Source of the DNA: Tepidisphaeraceae bacterium | GTDB lineage: Bacteria; Planctomycetota; Phycisphaerae; Tepidisphaerales; Tepidisphaeraceae | DNA length: 24,000 nt | Assembly (NCBI GenBank): GCA_965260985.1 | Contig: CBDHCE010000005.1 | Coordinates: forward strand, 358,306 to 382,305 | Direction of reading: 5' to 3' | Shown here: positions 1,951-24,000 of the stretch, piece by piece | How the letters are laid out: each line of letters starts with the position of its first letter | Position numbering within the stretch: the stretch's first letter is position 1 | Notes under the pieces: generated by a model | Database searches by the model: none | Told to the model about the DNA's origin: nothing | The model's input: only the letters and a program-made list of their open reading frames with translations | Position numbers and translations under genes: made by a program

Positions 1951-2691
1951 ATGCGACTGCCCACCGTGCGCGGCGTGATCGACCGGCGGATCCTCGTCAA
2001 CTACCGGCTTGACCCGGCCGTCGCGGCGAGGGAGTTGCCGGCGCCGTTCCGGCCGAAGTTGGTCGGGGGGTGGGCGATGGCGGGCATCTGCCTGATCCGG
2101 CTGACGCGCGTCCGGCCGGCGTGGGTGCCGGGGTGGCTGGCGGGGGCGGTGGGCGTGGGGTCGGAGAATGCGGCGCACCGCTTTGCGGTCGATTGGGAGG
2201 GGGGCGAGGGCGTTTACGTCCCGCGGCGCGACACCGACTCGCGCCTGGCCGCGCTGGCCGGCGGACGGCTGTTTTCCGGCGAGCACCGGCATGCGCGGTT
2301 CGACGTGGAGGAGTCGGCCGACCGGCTGCGCGTCGGCTTCCAAAGCGATGACGGCACGGCGGCGGTGTCCGTCACGGGGCGGGTGGCGGACGGGCTGCCG
2401 GCGGAATCGGTGTTCGAGTCGGTCGAGGCGGCGTCACGCTTTTTCAAGGCCGGGTCGCTCGGCTACTCCGCCACGCGCGATGCGGGGCGGTTTGACGGGC
2501 TGGAGTTGCGGGTGGAAAATTGGTCGGTTCGGCCGCTGGCGGTGGAGGCGGTGGCGTCGAGCTACTTCGGCGACGCGGAACGGTTCCCGCCGCGGTCGGT
2601 GGCGTTCGACCACGCGCTGCTGATGCGCGGGATCGACCACGAGTGGCACGCGCGGGAAGACCTTTGCTGCGACGGGCGGGGAGGGGCGTAG
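1951..2691 (+). CDS. DUF2071-like (acetoacetate-decarboxylase-fold) protein
   Basis: 'VIDRRILVNYRLDPAVAARELPAPFRPKLVGGWAMAGICLIRL' resembles the N-terminus of actinobacterial DUF2071 proteins as I recall them. An alternative start at 1903 would overlap the upstream stop by 1 nt. Confidence 0.55.
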   Translation: MRLPTVRGVIDRRILVNYRLDPAVAARELPAPFRPKLVGGWAMAGICLIRLTRVRPAWVPGWLAGAVGVGSENAAHRFAVDWEGGEGVYVPRRDTDSRLAALAGGRLFSGEHRHARFDVEESADRLRVGFQSDDGTAAVSVTGRVADGLPAESVFESVEAASRFFKAGSLGYSATRDAGRFDGLELRVENWSVRPLAVEAVASSYFGDAERFPPRSVAFDHALLMRGIDHEWHAREDLCCDGRGGA

Positions 2692-3033: not shown

Positions 3034-3411
3034 CTAAATCTCCAGATTGCGGGTGTGCGCCGGCGGGTTCTGCAGATAGATCTGCCGGCGCTGGATCGCC
3101 CGTTCAATATCTACCTTCGGAACTTCCTTTTCCTTGGTCAGCCCGTGGGCGAGAAGTGCCACGTTGCGGCCGTGGTAGAAGTATAGGATGCGGTAGTTTA
3201 CCCGGCCAACCTTCACCCGCAGTTCCAGAATGCCGTCGCGGAGGTAGTCCGCGTGCGGGCGGCGGAGCTCGTTCCCGAACTGCCTGAGCTTGTCCACGGC
3301 CGTCGCTATCCTGGCGACGGCGTTTGGGTCGCGTCGGCGCAACTGGTCGATCCAGTCCAGAACCGGCGCGTCATCTCCATCCGAGTAAACGTACACCTCC
3401 GTCTGCGGCAT
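3034..3411 (-). CDS. RelE/ParE-superfamily toxin (HigB / phage Gp49-like)
   Basis: 'LRRPHADYLRDGILELRVKVGRVNYRILYFYHGRNVALLAHGLTKE' is the typical Gp49/HigB-like core. ATG at 3411 has GGGAGG 8 nt upstream. The toxin-first gene order is as in higBA. Confidence 0.8.
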   Translation of the reverse strand: MPQTEVYVYSDGDDAPVLDWIDQLRRRDPNAVARIATAVDKLRQFGNELRRPHADYLRDGILELRVKVGRVNYRILYFYHGRNVALLAHGLTKEKEVPKVDIERAIQRRQIYLQNPPAHTRNLEI

Positions 3412-3448
3412 AGGTCCGGCCTCCCAAAGCAATGAACGGCTCGAGATT

Positions 3449-4351
3449 TTACCCCAGCAGCCCCCGCTCCCGCAAGTAGTTCAGCACCAGCGTGTCGAAC
3501 GGCACGGCGGTGGAGGTGAACAGGTACGTCCCGCCGCGCCGCGTGACATAGTTCTTCAGGCTCAGGCAGTAGGCGTTCAGGGTCGACTTATACTTTTTCA
3601 GCAGCGGCCCGGTGATGCTCACCTCCGCCTCGTCGGCGTCCTCCACGTCCTTCAGCCTCAGATCGCCCTGTAGGTCCGGGTCGATCTCCTGGGGGCTGAG
3701 GATTTGCACGCAGAACAAATCATACTTGCCGCCGGCGAGGTAGCGTAGGCCGTTCTCGAAGCCGCCCTTGTCGAAGAAGTCCGACAGCACGACGCACACG
3801 CCCTTGCCGCGGTTTTGCAGCGCGAAGCGCTTGCACGAGGCGGCGAAGTCGCTGCCGCCGGCGGGCTGCAACGTTTCGACGAACTCGATCATCCGCCGCA
3901 CGTTCCGCCGGCCTCGCATGGCGCCGGTTTCTGCCACCACCGTGTCGCTCATCGCCGCCACCGTCACGCGGTTGTAATTCACCAATCCGATGTAGGCGAG
4001 GGCGGCGGCGACCTGCTTGATATACTTCGACTTGCCCGGCTCGCCATAGTCGGTGCTCTTGCTTACGTCGAGCAGGACGTAGAGCGCCAAGTCTTCCTCT
4101 TCGAGGAAGAGTTTGAGGAAGAGCTTGTCGAGCCGGGCGTAGATGTTCCAGTCGATGAAGCGGAGGTCGTCGCCCTCGGTGTAATTCCGATAGTCGGCGA
4201 ACTCGACGGACTGGCCGCGGCGCTTGCTGCGGCGCTCGCCCTTCATCTTGCCGGACAGGAGCTTGCGCGAGACGACGTCGAGCTGGTCGAGCCGGGCCAT
4301 GAACTGCGGGTCGAGCAGGCGGTCGGACTTCGGTCGGGCGGTGGGGGTCAT
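3449..4351 (-). CDS. DUF58 domain protein (vWA-like, MoxR-associated family)
   Basis: 'LLDPQFMARLDQLDVVSRKLLSGKMKGERRSKRRGQSVEFADYRNYTEGDDLRFIDW' is the DUF58 signature. The ORF-track N-terminal extension (to 4435) is translated from repeat A1. Confidence 0.85.
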   Translation of the reverse strand: MTPTARPKSDRLLDPQFMARLDQLDVVSRKLLSGKMKGERRSKRRGQSVEFADYRNYTEGDDLRFIDWNIYARLDKLFLKLFLEEEDLALYVLLDVSKSTDYGEPGKSKYIKQVAAALAYIGLVNYNRVTVAAMSDTVVAETGAMRGRRNVRRMIEFVETLQPAGGSDFAASCKRFALQNRGKGVCVVLSDFFDKGGFENGLRYLAGGKYDLFCVQILSPQEIDPDLQGDLRLKDVEDADEAEVSITGPLLKKYKSTLNAYCLSLKNYVTRRGGTYLFTSTAVPFDTLVLNYLRERGLLG

Positions 4352-4438: not shown

Positions 4439-7400
4439 CTACGCCGCCGGCTTGGTCGTCGGGGCGCCGGGCACCTGGTCGGGGGCGCGCTGCAGGGGCA
4501 TCGGCAGCACCTGCACGTCGCCGAGGGCGTCCAACTGCGGCTTGATGATCGACGCCGGGCCGACCACGACGATGGTGAAGTCCTCCGGCTTGACGTACTG
4601 GCCCATCACCCGCCGCACGCCGTCGGCGGTGACTTCGGCGATCTTCTGGGGGTAAACGTCGAAGTAGTCGGTCGGGTAGCCGTTGAGCTCGATGTCCACG
4701 CGCCGGCCCGCCTGCTGGCCGACGGTTTGAGTTTGCAGCACCATGCTGCCGGCCACCTGGCGCTGGGTTTCGGTCAGCTCCGCCGGCTCGATGTCGGCGT
4801 CGACCATGCGCTCGAGGACGGTGAACGCCCCGGTGACGGCCTCGCCGGCGGTGGTCGGCTTGGTGTCGACCGAGACGTTGAACGTGCCGGCGTGGCGGCC
4901 GGGGCTGAAGTAGCCGCTCGCGCCGTAGGTCAGCCCGCGCTCGGCGCGGAGGTACTTGTTCATCCGGCTCTCGATGCCGCCCGACAGCACGCGGCTGGCG
5001 ACGGTGCCGGGGTATTTCTCGTCATTGGTGAGCTTGTACGCCTGGGCGGCCATGCGGATGCTCGCCTGCTGGCCGGCGGGGTTGTCGATCAGAATGATCC
5101 GCTGCTTCCGCGGCGCCGGCGGCAGGTCATAGGCGGCGGCGGGCGGGTCGCCGGCGGACCAGCCGTCGGCGAGTTGCTTGACCATCGCGTCCATCTGCGC
5201 CTGCGTCACGTCGCCGCTGACGACCATGAATGCCCCGTCGGGCCGGTAGGCCTTTTGGTACCACGCCTTCACGTCGTCGAGGGTGATCGACGCGACGCTG
5301 GCGGGCGTGGCCTGGCGGCCGAGGGCGGAGTCGCCGTACAGCGCCTTCTGCAAGTCCCGCCCCGCGACGCCGGCGGGGTCGCTCAGCGACTGCGCGAGGC
5401 CGCTGAGCGTCTGGGCCTTGAGCTTGGCGAACTCGCCGGCGGGGAAGGTCGGCTGCAGCAGCACCTGCTTGGCCCGCATCATCAGGTGCGGGAGTTCGTC
5501 AATCGTGGAGAAGCCGCTGAGGGTCGTGTGGTCGCCGCCGTCGGAGGCGTCGAGGGAGATGCCCCGGCCCTCCAGATCCTGACTCAACTGCTGGAACGAC
5601 AGGTCGCCCGCGCCGCGCGAGAGCATGGCGGCGGCGAGGTCGGCCACGCCCTCCTTGCCCGCCGGTGCCGCGTCGCCGCCGCCGCGCATCACCAGGGTCC
5701 AACTGGCGATCGGCAGCCGCTTGTCGGGCAGGACGATGACCTGCAACTCGCCGACCTTGCTGGTGGTGCCCTTCTCGAAGTTCGCCGTGAGGACATTGGT
5801 CGGCACCGGCGGCGCGTCGGGGAAGTCGGCCGGGAACTTGACCGCAGAGGCCGCGGGCATGGTGGCCGGCATCGTGGTGGGCTTGGTGCTAGCCGGCGTA
5901 GCGACGGGCGCGGGGCGGGGCGTCGGGGCCGCCCCCGCGGTAGTGCCCGCCGCGGCGCCGGCCTCGCCGGGCTCGGTCTTCGGCTGCTCGCTGGCGGGCA
6001 CGGCGGCGGCGGCCTGGTTGATCTCGCCGACGGCCTTCAGCCCCGCCGCCTGCTCCTGCTGCAGCTTCTCCGCCTCGCTGCCCGCCGGCGGCTTGCCGGG
6101 GAGGTAGGCGAGCTCGGTCATCTTCCGCTTCACCAGATACTTCTGCGCGATGGCCTGAATGTCCGCCGGCGTGACGGCCTCGATCTTCGACAGCGCCTCG
6201 TTGGCAATCTCCGCATTGCCTCCGAACACCTGCGCATCGCCCAACTGCGTCGCCACCTGCTCGGCGGTCTGGCGGCCGGTGATGAGGGCGATGCGGGCCT
6301 GGGTCTTGACCTTCTCCAGCTCCGCCGCCGTCACGCCGCCGGCCTTCAGCTTGTCGATGACCTTGAGCATCTCCGCCTCGATGCCCTTGACGTCATTGCC
6401 CGGCAGGGCGGCGCCGGAGACGACGAACAGCCCCTTGTCCTCGAGCTGAAAGTCCCCCGCCGACACGCCGACGGCCATCGGCTTCTCGCTGCCGACCATC
6501 GCCTCGTACAGCCGGCTGGTCGCCCCGTCGCCGAGGATCGAGCCGAGCAGGGCGAGCGCGTAGTGGTCATCGCTTTTATAGTCCGCCGTCTTGAAGCCGA
6601 GGATCGCGCGGGCGATCGGGACGTCGACCTTGTAAACCGTCAACTGCCGCTCGCCGTCCTGAACCGGCTCCGCGGGCGACTGGCGGGTGATCGGCTTGCC
6701 CTCGGGGATCCAGCCGAAGTACTCGTGGACCAGCTTCTTCGCCGCCGGCACGTCATACTTGCCGGCGATGATCAGTGTTGCATTATTCGGGACGTAGTAA
6801 GTGTTATGAAAGGTTTGCAATTCGTCGACGTTGGCGGCGGCGAGGTCGGCCATGTCGCCGATGGGCGTCCACTTGTAGTGGCTCTTGTCGTAGGCCGTCC
6901 GCAGGAAGTCCTGGAAGAACGTGCCGTAGGGCGGGTTGGCGGTGCGCATCCGCCACTCCTCGGCCACGACGTTGCGCTCGGTCTTGAAGATCGGCCCGGT
7001 GACGTGGAAGCTCGCCATGCGGTCGGCCTCCAGGTAGAGGGCCATCTTCAGGGCGTTGCTGGGGATCGTGTTGACGTAGGTCGTTTGATCAAAACTCGTG
7101 AAGGCGTTCGAGCTGCCGCCGACGTCGTTGATCAGTTTCATGTGCAGTTCCGGCGGCACGTGCGCGCTGCCGCGGAACATCATGTGCTCGAACATGTGGG
7201 CGAACCCCTGGCGGTCGGGCGTCTCGTCGCGGCTGCCGACGTGGTACATCACCCGCACGTGGATGACCGGCGCGTTGTCCAGCGGGGCGTAGAGGACCGT
7301 CAGCCCGTTGGGCAGCACCTCCTTGTCGTACTTGATCGGCGGCAGCGTCGCCGGCGCGGCGGCGGGCATCGTCGCCGGCATGGTGGAGGGCGAGTCGGCG

Positions 7401-19867: not shown

Positions 19868-19913
19868 GCCGTGGTGCGTGGATGGGGAGGAGGGGTGAGC
19901 GGGTGAGTTTCTG

Positions 19914-20037
19914 AGCCGGTGTCTGAGCCGAAGGCGAAGACCCGGGTTCTTCGCCGCTTGCGGCTTCGCAAAGAAACCGAACCCGTCGACGCCCCGAAGA
20001 ACCCGGGTCTTCGCCTTCGGCTCAGACGCCGGCTTGT
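19914..20037. repeat. Palindromic element C2, with half of a B-type element in its loop
   Basis: 'agccggtgtctgagccgaaggcgaagacccgggttcttcg' (19914-19953) pairs with 'cgaagaacccgggtcttcgccttcggctcagacgccggct' (19995-20034). The loop contains 'gccgcttgcggcttcgcaaagaaa', identical to the B2 arm. Confidence 0.9.
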
Positions 20038-20065
20038 TCCGGCCCATCTCAACAACTTAAATCCT

Positions 20066-20100
20066 CACGCACCACGCACCACGCACCACGCACCACGCAC
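20066..20100. repeat. Tandem heptamer array (CACGCAC) x5, the reverse complement of the array at 15464
   Basis: There are five exact units. The array ends 6 nt from the atpG stop codon (20107-20109). Confidence 0.95.
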
Positions 20101-20106
20101 CACCCC

Positions 20107-21084
20107 TCACTTCATCGCCTCCACGCCCCCCATGATCTCCGACAGCTCCGTCGTGATCTGGCTCTGCCGCGCCCGGTTGTATTGCAACTGTAGCGCCTTG
20201 CCCATCTTGTCGGCGTTGTCCGTCGCGCTCTTCATCGACACCATCCGCGCCACGTGCTCGCTCGTCGTGGCGTCCAGGAAGCACTGGAACAGCGCGCTCT
20301 TCACCGTCAGCGGCAGCAGCTCGTCCAGCAGGCTCGCGGCGTCGGGCGAAAACTCGTAATCGGTCGTGCCGGCGACGTGCTCGTCCGCCTTCGCCGCCTC
20401 GCGCGGGGCGGTGCTGAACGCGCCGGCGGCGCCCTGCGATTCGGTCTCGGCCTGCTCGAGCGCCTGCCGGTCGGTCGCCTCGGCGATGCCCGCCAGCGGC
20501 AGCAGCGTGATCACCTCCGCCCTCTGCGTGCCGGTGCTGACGAAGTTCATGTACGCCACGTGCAGCGCGTCGATCTTGCCCGCCACGAAGTCGGCCATGA
20601 ACGCCTCGGCCAGCCGGTCGACCTCGGCGAACGCCGGCTGGTCGCTCACGTCCAGCCGGCCGGCCATCTCGCGCTTCTGGAAGCGGAAAAAGCTCACCCC
20701 CTTCTTGCCGTTGACGTGCAGCTCGACGCCCCGGCCGGCCGCGTCCTCGTCCTTCAGGAACGTCTGGGCGACCTTCAGCACGTTCGGGTTGTACGCCCCG
20801 GCCAGCCCGCGGTTGCTGGTGATAACCACCACCGCCGACCTCCCGCTCGCCGGCGGCTCGCTGTCGGCCGCCGGCCGGCGCAGCAGCGGGTGCTCGACGT
20901 TCCCGACGCTCTCGGCCAGCTCGCGGACGAGCTCCCGCACCTTGGCGGTGTAGGGCTTGGTGCCGGTCGCCCGCTTGAGCGACTTCTGGAACTTCGCCGT
21001 GGCGATCATCTGCATGGTCTTGGTGATCTTCTTGATGTTCCGCACCGCCTTGCGGCGCTTGAGGATCGCGCGTGCTTTAGCCAT
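20107..21084 (-). CDS. atpG: F-type ATP synthase subunit gamma
   Basis: The N-terminus 'MAKARAILKRRKAVRNIKKITKTMQMIATAKF' and the C-terminus 'MKSATDNADKMGKALQLQYNRARQSQITTELSEIMGG' are canonical for gamma. ATG is at 21084. The 96-aa upstream extension in the ORF track is not gamma-like. Confidence 0.9.
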   Translation of the reverse strand: MAKARAILKRRKAVRNIKKITKTMQMIATAKFQKSLKRATGTKPYTAKVRELVRELAESVGNVEHPLLRRPAADSEPPASGRSAVVVITSNRGLAGAYNPNVLKVAQTFLKDEDAAGRGVELHVNGKKGVSFFRFQKREMAGRLDVSDQPAFAEVDRLAEAFMADFVAGKIDALHVAYMNFVSTGTQRAEVITLLPLAGIAEATDRQALEQAETESQGAAGAFSTAPREAAKADEHVAGTTDYEFSPDAASLLDELLPLTVKSALFQCFLDATTSEHVARMVSMKSATDNADKMGKALQLQYNRARQSQITTELSEIMGGVEAMK

Positions 21085-21139
21085 GCCGGCAGTGTAGCGT
21101 CCGGCGGGGCCTGTGGGTAGTCGCCGGGCCCCCGGCCCC

Positions 21140-21888
21140 ATGCGGCGGACGAACCGCGGCGGCGAGCCGCTGGCGGGGTCGAGCGTCCGCCGCAAGCTCT
21201 CGGCCCTGAGCTCGCTGTTCGACCACCTGCTGGAATCCAACGCCGTGCTCATCAACCCCTGCGGCGGGGTAAAGCGCCCGCCCAACGAGCACGCCGGCGA
21301 GGGGAAGACGCCCGCCCTCAGTGACCGCAACGCCCGGAAGCTGCTCGACGCGCCGCCCGAGAACACCCTCAAGGGGCTGCGGGACCGGGCGATCCTCTCG
21401 ACGCTGCTCTACCACGGCCTGCGGCGGGCGGAGCTGTGCAAGCTGCGCGTGGCGACGTCCACGAGCGCGGGAACTTCCGCGTGCTGCGGGTGCGGGGCAA
21501 GGGCCGCAAGACCCGCCACGTCGAGTTGCACCCGGCGACCGACCGGCGGATCAAACGCTACCTGGAGGCCGCCGGCCACGGGGACCAGGTGCGGGGGCCG
21601 CTGTTCCGGCCGGTGGTGAACCGGGTCGGCACGACGGAGAGGGCGCTGAACCCCAACAGCGTCTACCGCCAAGTCATCAGGAAGTGGGGTGCGGCCGTGG
21701 GCATCCCGGCCGAGGCGTTCACGACGCACTCGTGCCGGGCGACGGCGGCGACGAACGCGATCGACCACGGGGCGGCGCTGGAGGAGGTGCAGGGGTGGCT
21801 GGGCCACGCCGACGTGGGGAGCACCCGGCTGTACGTGCGGCGGTGGGGCGGCGGGGAGAAGAGCCCGACGTTCAAGGTCAGCTACTAA
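21140..21888 (+). pseudogene. Tyrosine recombinase/integrase, 5'-truncated and frameshifted
   Basis: Frame 1 reads 'VRRKLSALSSLFDHL...LRDRAILSTLLYHGLRRAELCKLRV' and contains the catalytic Arg. Frame 2 continues with 'GDVHERGNFRVLRVRGKGRKTRHVELHP...HSCRATAATNAI...WLGHADVGSTRLY...SPTFKVSY', giving HxxR, H and Y. One G is missing at about 21451. An in-frame stop at 21095-21097 leaves no room for the N-terminal ~60 aa. Confidence 0.8.
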
Positions 21889-22015
21889 GACTGCTCGCCG
21901 CCGGCCGATCAGCTAGTCACGACACTTGACGAGATATGTCATCTATGTCGCCCCAGACATCGCCAATAGCGGGAATTCCACGCGATGCTGCCACATTTTC
22001 TGCAGTAAGACATTA

Positions 22016-22402
22016 TCAAGTGACATCCTCCCTTTCATAAACTTCCTCAAGTAATGCAATAAGGTATTCGCGCTCACTTTCAATGACTCGTTCACCCAAT
22101 ACCGATCGCGCCTCAATTTCATCAATGGCCTGTCGCGAACTTAATACCATACCCTCAGGGCACGCGAGCTGAAATCTTGCTATAGTGCGGCCATTCTCTT
22201 CGTCATCCGCCCCGCTTCTCATCTGGTTTAAAATTAGATCGCGCCACTCGTCTGGGGTTAAATTGATGAAAGATTTAATTGCGGGTTTGGAATCGACGAC
22301 CTCCCGCAATGTGTACATGCATCCACCATCTGTTGCATATGCGACTGGCAGTTGCCAGACTAACAATTGAGGCCGTTTCTCAAGATCCGGTATATATCGC
22401 AT
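22016..22402 (-). CDS. Hypothetical acidic protein; candidate immunity protein for the upstream toxin tip
   Basis: This 128-aa ORF sits in low-GC DNA and starts 37 nt downstream of the GNAT-like ORF on the same strand. I recognise no motif. The call is by position only. Confidence 0.5.
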   Translation of the reverse strand: MRYIPDLEKRPQLLVWQLPVAYATDGGCMYTLREVVDSKPAIKSFINLTPDEWRDLILNQMRSGADDEENGRTIARFQLACPEGMVLSSRQAIDEIEARSVLGERVIESEREYLIALLEEVYEREDVT

Positions 22403-22439
22403 AAGGATTTACTACAATTTGAATTTTGTACTCTTGGTC

Positions 22440-23168
22440 TCATCCGCCGCTACAGGACGAAGTCATCTGTGCCGTGCGGGGATTATATGTATGAATGTCA
22501 TACCCGAACTTACCAAGTATCTTTGCGCGGGGTGTGTCAAGTATTGTTTTTCCAGCCGTTTCCAAAATTGCCTCATTCACGCCTCCAGGAACTCCTTCGA
22601 CGATTAAAGGGTTTCCAATTTCCGGAAGCAGCCTGCCGTAAAGCTCTGTGCCAAGCCCCATTCCTTGGAATGTCGGATGAACTGCAACACTATAGATTTT
22701 CCCATACGCGGCAGTTCCCCTCCCAGAAATGGTCCCAAGGTTGCCATAATCTACTGTGATGAGGCCCCTGACTTGACGGACGCTAAATTCCGCAGGTATG
22801 CCTGGGTTTAAAATAGGCAAACTGATTGGCGACCTTGCTACTGTTGCATCTGCGGCCGCGACGCCCGCCGCCGGAGTGCCTGCAATTCCGGCAACCGCCA
22901 ACTGCGGACGCCGCAGGGCGATCGCGCCGAAGGTGGCGGTGCCGGCGACCGCGGCGGCCTTGAGCGTGCCCTCCGCGTCCGCCCCACCATAGGCCGCACG
23001 GCCGGCACTCACCGCCCCGACGGAGCCGGCCGCGCCCGAAGCGAGCATTAATCCCCTCGCGCCGGCCAAGGGCGGAATGACCCCAATTGCCAGCACGGTC
23101 AGCACGTCGACGCCGTTCGGGTCCGCCACCGGCCGGCTGCCGACGTAGAGCGGGTGGAGCACCGGCAT
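22440..23168 (-). CDS. Rhs-associated C-terminal module: core-end remnant, Gly/Ala-rich hydrophobic region and GNAT-like domain
   Basis: 'LHPLYVGSRPVADPNGVD' is a degenerate Rhs core end. 'IYSVAVHPTFQGMGLGTELYGRLL' is GNAT motif A, with QxxGxG at 22667-22650. The ORF is in frame with the upstream Rhs ORF across a single TAG. G+C falls sharply 3' of about 22850. Confidence 0.6.
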   Translation of the reverse strand: MPVLHPLYVGSRPVADPNGVDVLTVLAIGVIPPLAGARGLMLASGAAGSVGAVSAGRAAYGGADAEGTLKAAAVAGTATFGAIALRRPQLAVAGIAGTPAAGVAAADATVARSPISLPILNPGIPAEFSVRQVRGLITVDYGNLGTISGRGTAAYGKIYSVAVHPTFQGMGLGTELYGRLLPEIGNPLIVEGVPGGVNEAILETAGKTILDTPRAKILGKFGYDIHTYNPRTAQMTSSCSGG

Positions 23169-23219
23169 GCCGAGGCGGTCCCCGATGAGGTACCCGCTCC
23201 GCTCGGTTTGACTCCAGCT

Positions 23220-24000
23220 CTACGTCCCTTCGACGTACGACGCCAACGCCGCGTTGTGCCGCTCGGCCAACTGCTGGTCCCACATGTATCTGGCCGTCTC
23301 CTCCATGTCGCTGGGGCCCCCGAGCCAAGTGACGTACGGCTGCGGGGTCGGGTCGATGTGGGGGCTGAGCACATCCTCTATATCGAACATCGAATGCGAC
23401 CGGCCTGACACCGGCTCGGAATCGCGCAGGTGTTCGGACAAGCCTTCGCCGGCCCCGCCGGAGAAGGCCCCGCCGGTGAGGTCCAAGCCCTCGCCGGTCA
23501 CCTCCAAGGTGCCGTCGGGGCGGACCCGCACGCCGGGGGCCAACTCCACGCCGGGCATCGGCGGCCGGCCCCCGCCGCCGCCGGAGGTGGCCTCGTAGGC
23601 GAGGCCGCTCGGGTCGATCCCGTTCACCGGGTCGTTGCCGGCGTAGCGGTACAGGTTCCCGTCCCCCGCCCCGAAGCCGATCGGGTCCTGCGTGACGAAG
23701 CGGCCCGACCCCGCGTCGTAGTAGCGGTGCCAGGCGTAGTAGAGGCCGGCGTCCGCGTCCCACTCCAGCCCGGCGAACTGGTGCCGCGGGGCGTGGCTAG
23801 CATCTGTCTGGCCGGTCACGTTGCCGAAGCCGTCGTACCGCAGGTGGTCCAGCGCGACGCCGCCGTTGCCCACCACGTCCCGAACGGTCCCCTCGCGGTC
23901 GGCCAGGTCCCACGCCACCCGGTCCGCCGCGGACGCGGGTTTGCCCGCCTCCTCGTCCGCCAGCGCCCCCGGCGTGCCGGGGCGGGACAGCATTCGGTGC
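23220..24000 (-). CDS. Rhs/YD-repeat toxin, 3' part (gene continues beyond the window end)
   Basis: YD repeats are present ('LRYDGFGNVTGQTD'). The Rhs-associated core end reads 'WHRYYDAGSGRFVTQDPIGFGAGDGNLYRYAGNDPVNGIDPSGL' (L at 23603-23601). It is followed by a 126-aa unrecognised C-terminal region ending at TAG 23222-23220. Confidence 0.85.
   Translation of the reverse strand, partial: HRMLSRPGTPGALADEEAGKPASAADRVAWDLADREGTVRDVVGNGGVALDHLRYDGFGNVTGQTDASHAPRHQFAGLEWDADAGLYYAWHRYYDAGSGRFVTQDPIGFGAGDGNLYRYAGNDPVNGIDPSGLAYEATSGGGGGRPPMPGVELAPGVRVRPDGTLEVTGEGLDLTGGAFSGGAGEGLSEHLRDSEPVSGRSHSMFDIEDVLSPHIDPTPQPYVTWLGGPSDMEETARYMWDQQLAERHNAALASYVEGT

Follow-up and report, generated by a model that had tools for sequence, protein, structure and literature searches.

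A low-G+C cassette at the end of a Tepidisphaeraceae Rhs locus, with a predicted GNAT-fold toxin tip and a candidate immunity gene

The 3' end of an rhs gene lies on the minus strand of a 24,000-nucleotide (nt) stretch of a Tepidisphaeraceae bacterium contig, hereafter the window, and it is followed by a terminal module that is probably an acquired cassette of low guanine plus cytosine (G+C) content, encoding a GNAT-fold toxin and its cognate immunity protein. The predicted toxin domain, or tip, forms the C-terminal part of a 242-amino-acid (aa) protein, P0001, which is the product of the second open reading frame (ORF) of the locus, ORF2. Whether this tip represents the first acyl-CoA-dependent (GNAT) class of cargo on Rhs and other polymorphic toxins, acylating an essential target that is possibly aminoacyl-tRNA and countered by at least two immunity families, is a further step that we regard as evenly balanced. 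Relatives are referred to by metagenome contig or locus (L001 to L015) and by protein (P numbers), and all of them come from short metagenome contigs. The parts of the locus are as follows, in window positions, with GC3 denoting the G+C fraction at third codon positions and pI the isoelectric point.

23601..24000, minus strand: 3' end of the rhs gene, RHS repeat-associated core, ending ...DPVNGIDPSGL (TIGR03696, NF041261, core-end profile)
23223..23600, minus strand: CT1, the 126 aa after the core end (native G+C, GC3 0.91, pI 4.4, Gly-rich start)
23220..23222, minus strand: in-frame TAG stop (translation)
23169..23219, minus strand: 17 in-frame codons (SWSQTERSGYLIGDRLG) from the TAG to the first possible start (GC3 0.88, 15/17)
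22440..23168, minus strand: ORF2 (P0001), 242 aa, with a native-G+C, Gly/Ala-rich N-terminal part and a low-G+C, predicted GNAT-fold C-terminal domain (ATG at 23168)
22848..23114, minus strand: Gly/Ala-rich, moderately hydrophobic linker (48% Gly+Ala, native G+C)
22443..22844, minus strand: putative toxin tip, a trimmed GNAT-fold domain (AlphaFold2, Foldseek, Pfam, relatives)
22650..22667, minus strand: GNAT motif A, QGMGLG, acetyl-CoA pyrophosphate loop between beta4 and alpha3 (sequence)
22016..22402, minus strand: candidate cognate immunity gene, 128 aa, pI 4.5 (start 37 nt past the ORF2 stop; linked homologues)
22033..22862, no strand assigned: putative mobile tip and immunity cassette (the only stretch with DNA homology to L001)

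The rhs ORF is open past the window edge at 24000, where its translation enters as ...GNLYRYAGNDPVNGIDPSGL, and its core terminates in ...NLYRYAGNDPVNGIDPSGL. TIGR03696 (Rhs_assc_core) matches residues 55-133 of this ORF (23837-23601; E 1.7e-20, 73.3 bits against a cutoff of 32.5), the RHS_core equivalog NF041261 covers its last 97 positions there (1165-1261 of 1261; E 1.3e-14), and a custom core-end profile recovers the same end at E 1e-7. Upstream of the core end there is a single weak RHS_repeat match (E 0.042), the gene leaving the window at 24000. The 3' end of rhs in the window is a genuine Rhs core end with a DPxGL-type autoproteolysis motif, and it lies where a preliminary description of this DNA, made without database searches, had placed it.

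The tip domain, its family and its predicted fold

An exhaustive phmmer search with the last 135 residues of ORF2 against 1.84 billion cluster representatives returned 15 true relatives of the tip (E 7.5e-16 to 7e-4), three other matches (P0012, P0017 and P0018) having been discarded as spurious hits to repetitive proteins, and a pattern scan of metagenome contigs added five further tip loci. When ORF2 or the family alignment A1 was used in word-indexed protein searches, only the query's own record came back, the exact ORF2 protein being on record from one NCBI/ENA contig of 389,435 bp. No relatives of the tip were found in plasmid or phage records, and PADLOC and PHROGs contained no meaningful match for the tip, the 128-aa protein or CT1.

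The domain is C-terminal in every relative. In L010, L011 and L012 it closes uninterrupted ORFs that also encode YD repeats and a TIGR03696 core, and the fragments P0020 and P0024 likewise have it C-terminal to a TIGR03696 core within one continuous ORF. Behind a short core stub (…YTYVVQNPWTKFDPLGL) it occurs in P0015 and P0023, and behind a PT-HINT domain (E 3.7e-31) in P0011, so that fusions of the tip to Rhs cores or PT-HINT are present in at least eight independent proteins. The preliminary description had named homologues occurring mainly as stand-alone housekeeping acetyltransferases as the finding that would speak against a toxin; the relatives are instead mostly C-terminal parts of Rhs, HINT and orphan-module proteins. 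On these sequence comparisons we assign the tip, with about 20 relatives, to a hitherto unannotated family of polymorphic-toxin C-terminal domains.

The low-G+C C-terminal domain, about 135 aa long, is predicted to be a trimmed GNAT fold. An AlphaFold2 model built from a 15-sequence alignment (predicted local distance difference test, pLDDT, 90; predicted TM-score, pTM, 0.79) has four consecutive strands followed by alpha3, beta5, alpha4, an extra helix and beta6-beta7, and includes the GNAT core beta4-alpha3-beta5-alpha4-beta6. Foldseek comparison of this model with the PDB gave 44 matches at E<=1e-3, and all 50 of the matches listed have the GNAT fold (TM-score, TMq, 0.41-0.61; E 1e-4 to 1e-3), including RimI, GCN5/PCAF, AAC(6'), EctA, Ard1/NatC and the C-terminal domain of Mycobacterium tuberculosis ICL2/Rv1916. 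The GNAT-like domain of ICL2/Rv1916 has the best TMq among the matches listed (0.59-0.61). At the sequence level, Pfam Acetyltransf_1 is matched by 11 of 16 family members at E<=0.1 (best E 4e-7) and PF14542 (Acetyltransf_CG) by five of 16, with the window protein itself scoring 23.4-24.7 bits against Acetyltransf_1 (gathering cutoff 20.7) over 36-37 residues. The family profile found weak matches among PDB sequences, nearly all of them GNAT acetyltransferases (best E 0.004), and 28 of the 30 profile matches are either GNAT acetyltransferases or uncharacterised proteins recognised as GNAT-fold. Both the GNAT fold and a motif A reading FQGMGLG had been proposed from the sequence; the Foldseek matches to a model of high confidence uphold the former, and QGMGLG is present at 22667-22650.

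Residue conservation was counted across 20 tip sequences, in tip numbering. Residues L68, G84, N90 and G114 are invariant, and H118 (19/19), Y69 (19/20), P105 (18/20) and R106 (17/20) are nearly so, with P105 and R106 belonging to a conserved basic TPRAK motif. Motif A takes the family form [QKR]-x-x-G-x-[GS], in which position 60 is Q, K or R in 17 of 20 sequences, G63 is kept in 17 of 20, and position 65 is G or S in 19 of 20. The tip as a whole is basic, with a pI of 8.8.

These features suggest how the module might act. In Rhs and Tc proteins, whatever lies C-terminal to the core autoproteolysis motif (DPxGL) is enclosed by the shell and released from it, and GNATs bind acyl-CoA through motif A. 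The Rhs shell would enclose everything C-terminal to its DPxGL motif, and after delivery the Gly/Ala-rich hydrophobic linker might help the tip into the target cytoplasm or across the membrane. The tip would have to act inside the target cell, since acetyl-CoA exists only in the cytoplasm, and there the [QKR]xxGx[GS] loop and the invariant Asn90 would hold acetyl-CoA taken from the victim, and the tip would acylate an essential amine, with His118 and Tyr69 as catalytic candidates. The TPRAK motif together with H118 hints at a phosphate-bearing substrate, for example a charged tRNA, for which TacT and AtaT would be the precedent. In producer cells the acidic immunity protein (pI 4.5) would bind the basic tip and block it, as linkage and co-variation of the two suggest. 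TacT, AtaT and ItaT poison cells through acetylation of aminoacyl-tRNA (PMC13617354).

Several considerations weigh against taking the tip for an active acetyltransferase toxin. The matches of the window protein alone to GNAT sequence models are short and weak (36 residues, 23.4 bits), and the tip model has no alpha1-alpha2 arm, the element that usually forms the acceptor site in canonical GNATs. The ICL2/Rv1916 C-terminal domain is one that we take to bind acetyl-CoA as a regulator and not to transfer acetyl groups. Toxicity, acetyl-CoA use and target of the tip are all inferred. The missing arm and the closeness to the ICL2 domain leave room for a non-transferase action, in which the tip would be toxic without being an acetyl-CoA-dependent N-acetyltransferase, through acyl-CoA sequestration or hydrolysis, through use of aminoacyl-tRNA as the donor, or through pure target binding; Fem and L/F-transferase are GNAT-fold enzymes that use aminoacyl-tRNA in this way. 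This alternative draws further on the fact that the domain with the top TM-scores is known to us solely as regulatory and that no Glu or Asp general base is prominent among the invariant residues, and we consider it unlikely, given that two typical features of CoA-binding transferases, motif A and the invariant Asn90, are kept, that the near-invariant His118 and Tyr69 are plausible catalytic residues, and that most of the fold and profile matches are bona fide acetyltransferases.

Candidate immunity genes and the mobile cassette

The ORF that follows ORF2 (22402-22016) encodes an acidic protein of 128 aa in the same low-G+C DNA (GC3 0.44-0.45), as the preliminary description had it, and its pI of 4.5 is complementary to the 8.8 of the tip. 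This protein has no match in Pfam, NCBIfam, PADLOC or PHROG, and none to ribbon-helix-helix (RHH) or DUF1778 families (Pfam/NCBIfam, E<=1), in agreement with the earlier view of a non-RHH partner. The window-type family is present in four loci, directly downstream of the tips most closely related to one another; besides the window these are:

L001: P0008, 122 aa, 69% identity to the 128-aa ORF; tip 75% identical to the window tip
L014: 122-aa ORF, 46% identity to the 128-aa ORF; tip (P0009) 43% identical
L015: uncalled 117-aa ORF, hhalign probability 98.8%, E 1e-16; tip (P0010) 39% identical

It is these linked homologues that give weight to the original suggestion of an immunity gene. A second family, A5, stands directly after the tip of the other subclade, also in four loci (L004, L005, L006/L009 and L013). 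The A5 proteins are about 126-133 aa long and without a Pfam match; LEG, LW..P, F.S and WF motifs are among the 22 invariant columns of their alignment. Their positions, in contig coordinates, are:

L004: 3296-3679
L005: 2484-2885
L006: 6972-7352
L013: 773-1162

Kinship of the window-type and A5 families was ruled out by an hhalign probability of 0.1%, and A5 is a candidate new immunity family, unrelated to the window 128-aa protein. Two unrelated partner families, each faithful to one tip subclade, are the signature of a polymorphic toxin/immunity system and not of a metabolic operon. When the window is compared with L001, the ratio of nonsynonymous to synonymous substitution rates (dN/dS) comes to 0.13 in the tip and 0.08 in the immunity gene, with dS near saturation; these values mark purifying selection and indicate that tip and partner are both maintained by it. 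Judged by linkage and sequence, the 128-aa ORF behaves as the candidate cognate immunity gene of the tip. A structural model of the 128-aa protein was unusable (pLDDT 47).

Elsewhere, full-length rhs genes that end in the GNAT-fold tip are followed by other small ORFs, namely L011 6252-6551, L012 6329-6553 and L010 2029-2268. The first encodes a zinc-ribbon-like protein of 99 aa and overlaps the Rhs stop, and the other two encode 74 aa (L012) and 79 aa (L010). These ORFs may represent further immunity types.

The base composition of the window sets the tip and its partner apart. In a composition scan the G+C falls from about 0.70 to about 0.46-0.50 near 22860-22900, close to the abrupt drop near 22850 noted earlier, and GC3 falls from about 0.83-0.85 to 0.44-0.45 in the last 135 codons of ORF2 and in the following 128-aa ORF. 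The low-G+C island extends over about 21900-22862 and has high-G+C DNA on both flanks within the window. Residues 21-107 of ORF2, upstream of the drop, correspond to the native-G+C, Gly/Ala-rich hydrophobic stretch of some 90 aa in the preliminary description; they are 48% Gly+Ala and moderately hydrophobic, with a Kyte-Doolittle peak of 1.8 at residues 19-45. Gly-rich hydrophobic linkers of similar composition precede the tip in L001, L004, L010 and P0024, and the linkers of ORF2 and L001 have no sequence homology to each other.

DNA homology between the window and L001 is confined to a single stretch, window 22033-22862 against L001 1357-527, with 71% identity over 836 nt by blastn. This shared stretch of about 0.83 kb, which coincides with the GC3 drop, opens about six codons ahead of the tip model (first residue at 22844), closes at the 3' end of the immunity gene, and is lower in G+C than its surroundings in both places. 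In the window and in L001 alike, the ORF extends further upstream as a Gly-rich hydrophobic linker, host-like in composition and not homologous between the two. Since DNA homology stops there, the tip and immunity pair appears to have been exchanged between unrelated carriers at the boundary of linker and tip.

The neighbourhood bears traces of mobile elements. A remnant of a tyrosine recombinase (XerC/D-like, Phage_integrase) lies at 21113-21888 on the plus strand, lacking about 40-55 N-terminal residues and frameshifted between about 21458 and about 21478, so that its halves fall in the ORFs 21113-21619 and 21436-21888; the remnant and the immunity gene converge, their ends about 130 bp apart. 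An integron-like capture by this integrase was considered and is unsupported, the integrase being convergent, truncated and frameshifted and the cassette ends having no standout flanking repeats. A 14-nt direct repeat, CTGTTGCAT[A/C]TGCG, occurs with 93% identity at 22330-22343, in the immunity gene, and at 22841-22854, at the 5' boundary of the cassette; as a short family with two copies, it is probably due to chance. In L001, a fragment at 2256-2558 (minus strand), about 0.9 kb downstream of the cassette copy, resembles by eye an IS21 IstB-like ATPase (…LIVDELGYL…TSNLPFGEW…), which suggests a mobile-element neighbourhood there too.

Further from the cassette, a solitary gene for an ATP synthase gamma subunit (PF00231, E 5.6e-83) occupies 20107-21084 on the minus strand, with no neighbouring atp genes. 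Synteny with the contigs L002 and L003 (82-90% nt identity), both of which are without the Rhs region, stops at 19881, and about 19900-24000 may therefore be a variable region. As a point against a delivered toxin, the surroundings offer no hint of a delivery route: the N terminus of the Rhs protein lies outside the window, and the 10 large ORFs scanned up to about 12 kb are housekeeping genes or gave no Pfam match, the former including an M16 peptidase, malate dehydrogenase and a peroxidase-family protein.

The recombinase remnant about 130 bp from the cassette, the end of L002/L003 synteny at 19881 and the IstB-like fragment beside the L001 copy would also suit an account without any toxin system, in which a mobile element introduced an ordinary small acetyltransferase gene and a small ORF unrelated to it, which by chance landed beside rhs and fused to its end. 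We hold this to be highly improbable: it would have to accommodate the fusion of the tip to Rhs cores or PT-HINT in at least eight independent proteins, the two small-protein families linked downstream in four loci each, the lack of tip relatives in plasmids and phages, and a cassette whose 5' edge, in the window as in L001, falls within a longer ORF and at the same domain boundary.

An assembly artefact in a metagenome-assembled genome, whether a chimeric contig behind the G+C jump or a consensus error behind the TAG, is also improbable, if less so. The source protein is on record from that single 389-kb contig, the contigs of relatives break nearby (L003 ends just past an AI-2E transporter gene), and the neighbouring integrase is frameshifted as well. 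On the other side, the ORF is open across the G+C junction, the independent contig L001 has the same domain boundary and G+C shift, and high-G+C DNA lies on both sides of the island, which together make a chimera very unlikely; a single-base error creating the TAG is possible.

Comparison with known toxins and GNAT proteins

The window locus was compared with Rhs/YD-repeat toxins, including RhsA/RhsB of Dickeya, RhsP2 of Pseudomonas, Tre23 of Photorhabdus and RhsF/TreThr of Chromobacterium (PMC13617354). It resembles them in a core that ends in a DPxGL-type motif, in a cargo that differs from the core in G+C, in a small, putatively cognate gene directly downstream, and in the apparent swapping of tip and immunity gene between unrelated carriers, and it differs from them in that its cargo has a predicted GNAT fold and that a TAG stands between this cargo and the core. 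The Rhs cargos known to us are nucleases, deaminases, ADP-ribosyltransferases, pore-formers and similar proteins, and none is a GNAT.

The GNAT toxins of type II toxin-antitoxin systems, TacT, AtaT, ItaT and KacT, are a comparator with a similar fold. As in these, the GNAT-fold domain seems to be paired with a dedicated small protein, and the tip is basic, with an Arg/Lys motif (TPRAK) compatible with an RNA substrate. In contrast to these stand-alone toxins of about 170 aa, the window tip is a C-terminal domain of about 135 aa from large secreted proteins and lacks alpha1-alpha2, and its partner is downstream, acidic and without RHH/DUF1778 match. None of TacT, AtaT, ItaT and KacT appears by name among the 30 PDB profile matches or the 50 Foldseek matches listed. 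A specific kinship with TacT/AtaT/ItaT, which the preliminary description had named for comparison, is thus not borne out, and by sequence the tip does not appear to be a member of the TacT/AtaT class. These toxins therefore serve only as a precedent for an aminoacyl-tRNA target.

Other comparators, minimal or atypical GNAT-like domains, are the PF14542 Acetyltransf_CG proteins (YjdJ-type; PDB 1r57 and 5i0c, both among the PDB profile matches) and the C-terminal domain of ICL2/Rv1916 (PDB 6edw and 8g8k; TM 0.59-0.61), which share the small GNAT core. Identity of the tip to ICL2 is 6-8%, with weak E-values, and both the PF14542 proteins and ICL2/Rv1916 work in the cytoplasm as enzymes or regulators and are neither secreted as cargo nor paired with immunity proteins.

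GNATs have been placed in genomic conflicts before. The closest statement in the literature searched accompanies a description of RimI-like GNATs from injected polyvalent proteins of phages and plasmids, and says in general terms that polymorphic toxin systems include GNATs as well (Iyer et al. 2017, PMC5512222). The polyvalent-protein GNATs (PMC5512222) are, like the predicted tip, delivered effector modules in inter-genomic conflict; unlike it, they are RimI-like, lie inside multi-domain phage or plasmid proteins and have no immunity genes. The accessible portion of the 2012 polymorphic-toxin survey PMC3482391 does not contain the words GNAT, acetyltransferase or acyltransferase, and a full-text literature search, incomplete in its coverage, found no description of a GNAT tip on an Rhs, polymorphic, T6SS (type VI secretion system) or other interbacterial toxin, which accords, within that coverage, with the earlier statement that an Rhs effector with such a tip is uncharacterised. 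What appears to be new here, as far as sequence can tell, is the GNAT fold as cargo of Rhs and HINT toxins, together with two new immunity families.

Interbacterial toxins of the Rhs, contact-dependent inhibition, T6SS and T7SS (type VII secretion system) kinds have been a rich source of enzymology, DddA base editors, (p)ppApp synthetases and RNA-targeting ADP-ribosyltransferases being examples. Should the tip prove active, acyl-CoA-dependent modification would join the chemistries of bacterial antagonism, and the tip would provide a minimal GNAT scaffold of about 115 ordered residues with a defined inhibitor. If the proposed target is right, the chemistry of TacT/AtaT toxin-antitoxin systems would be linked to interbacterial warfare, and the family would offer a natural test of whether the toxicity of such GNATs, by aminoacyl-tRNA acetylation, was reinvented for intercellular delivery. 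Two immunity families and a cassette of about 0.83 kb would also make a clean system for following tip/immunity co-divergence and carrier swaps.

The in-frame TAG and the region between core and tip

How the GNAT-fold ORF came to be separated from the Rhs core is of local interest only. In the window a TAG divides the two, and in L010, L011 and L012 the relatives are contiguous with the core. The preliminary description had read 126 aa of no recognised motif followed by a TAG at 23222-23220, with the next ATG, at 23168, in the same frame 17 codons beyond, and translation confirms each of these points. CT1 (23600-23223) has zero matches in Pfam, NCBIfam, PHROG and PADLOC, no relatives in a scan of the genome contig collection, and no similarity to the linkers of tip-family members; BLASTP of CT1 and the ORF2 N terminus against all family linkers likewise gave nothing significant with composition correction. 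A likeness by eye between CT1 and the L001 region upstream of the tip (LGG..D.MEET..HNA) was attributable to chance (p=0.43 in Smith-Waterman shuffles). CT1 could be a main tip in its own right, if a short one, or else the opening portion of a long pre-toxin linker.

The 17 codons after the TAG contain no in-frame ATG, GTG or TTG, and 15 of their 17 third positions are G or C, as had been claimed; taken alone this gives p~0.07 against 69% G+C (binomial), and along the frame GC3 runs from 0.91-0.95 in the core and CT1 through 0.88 in the 17 codons to 0.83 in the first 107 codons of ORF2, staying at 0.9-1.0 through the TAG itself. No promoter-like or terminator-like sites were found in 21700-24000. 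Recoding of the TAG was considered and rejected as unlikely, because TAG serves two further genes of the window as their normal stop.

We place about half of our confidence in a TAG that interrupts one ancestral effector ORF, as a real nonsense change or a base-call error. The two parts share a frame, with a GC3 periodicity that carries on without a break across the TAG and the 17 codons; the gap between the ORFs measures just 51 nt and holds no further ORF, no immunity gene for CT1 and no regulatory signal; CT1 has neither relatives nor domains; and the core-end profile finds no stub at the start of ORF2. A pre-toxin region of 256 aa would be plausible, because within the same tip subclade the open frame upstream of the tip runs for at least 180 aa in L001 and at least 285 aa in P0010 without a core end. 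Set against a single interrupted ORF are the relatives in L005 and L006, which are classical orphan modules, and the alignment of the ORF2 N terminus (YVGSRPV–ADPNG, then a hydrophobic Gly/Ala segment) to the Rhs core end and Gly/Ala linker of L010, with p=0.004 in global and 0.024 in block shuffles, as the best of nine comparisons.

The second core-end motif that the preliminary description saw at this place is not clearly above chance. A 35-position core-end profile built from seven family members leaves the ORF2 start undetected even at E<=1000, TIGR03696 has no match there at E<=1, and the sole DNA echo of the main core end near the ORF2 start is a 16-nt match. Pairwise comparisons gave p values of 0.004-0.03: in addition to the L010 alignment, Smith-Waterman comparison of the ORF2 start with the window's own core end scored 31 over 14 residues (p~0.03 by shuffling), and comparison with P0020 gave p=0.011. 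The motif is statistically marginal and, on this sequence evidence, better treated as a lead than as a finding.

If the motif is real, it would fit an arrangement like that of the orphan rhs-CT/rhsI modules that lie downstream of main rhs genes in Salmonella and E. coli. In such a case the TAG would be the true end of rhs, CT1 would be its tip, perhaps a defunct one, and ORF2 with the 128-aa gene would be a displaced or reserve module that keeps a decayed core stub (…PLYVGSRPVADPNG…) and stays silent, or is expressed by itself, until recombined onto an Rhs core. The window module resembles these in lying downstream of a core end, in the same orientation and with its own putative immunity gene, and differs in having neither a clear core stub nor an intervening immunity gene for the main tip, and in standing in frame, 17 codons after the main stop. 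We hold this second history to be somewhat less likely than the first. Within the tip family, the stub of P0015 in L006 is identical to the main core end there in 20 of 21 positions, and P0024 in L005 has a longer stub with a TIGR03696 match. In the window itself, the TAG is followed by an ATG 17 codons later, the alignments of the ORF2 N terminus to L010 and P0020 point the same way, and the hydrophobic Gly-rich segment would directly follow a DPxG, as it does in L010 and L004. What speaks for less confidence is that the 51 nt between CT1 and ORF2 leave no immunity gene there, that the stub escapes both the family core-end profile and TIGR03696, and that a DNA match of just 16 nt leaves homologous recombination with the main gene unsupported. 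In the usual order of orphan formation, the older tip is displaced downstream; here the unameliorated low-G+C tip looks newer than the native-G+C CT1, the reverse of that order. The shared frame would be a one-in-three coincidence. The remaining weight falls to other histories, such as an in-frame deletion that fused the two.

The orphan modules of other loci are instructive in their own right. In L006 (1-9405; also L009), a main Rhs protein of 2840 aa, whose C terminus we read by eye as an HNH-like tip, is followed by an overlapping Imm33-like gene (4733-5032), about 1 kb of further DNA, and then P0015 with its 126-aa partner. Three more small ORFs of L006 (7429-7806, 8490-8891 and 9199-9405) may be orphan immunity genes. 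Residues 1-25 of P0015 (L006 6001-6075), before the core stub, resemble a signal peptide by eye (MNVKRIAALFILLLVWVSSASG), and because of this start some orphans of the tip family may be exported alone. In L005, the region upstream of the orphan P0024 (2-1102) encodes the end of a toxin gene with an HSE...CPDC motif and a weak match to cytidine deaminase (PF00383, E 0.006), followed by two small unannotated ORFs, and is probably another toxin/immunity set in the same array.

L004 (2-3679) is split in its own way. An Rhs ORF with a TIGR03696 core and a Gly-rich linker carries the first Hint block only (CFPAGTPVLMADDG) and stops at 1789, and P0011 (1849-3288) carries the remaining Hint/PT-HINT sequence and the GNAT-fold tip, followed by the uncalled 127-aa A5-type ORF at 3296-3679; the arrangement may be a disrupted single polyprotein.

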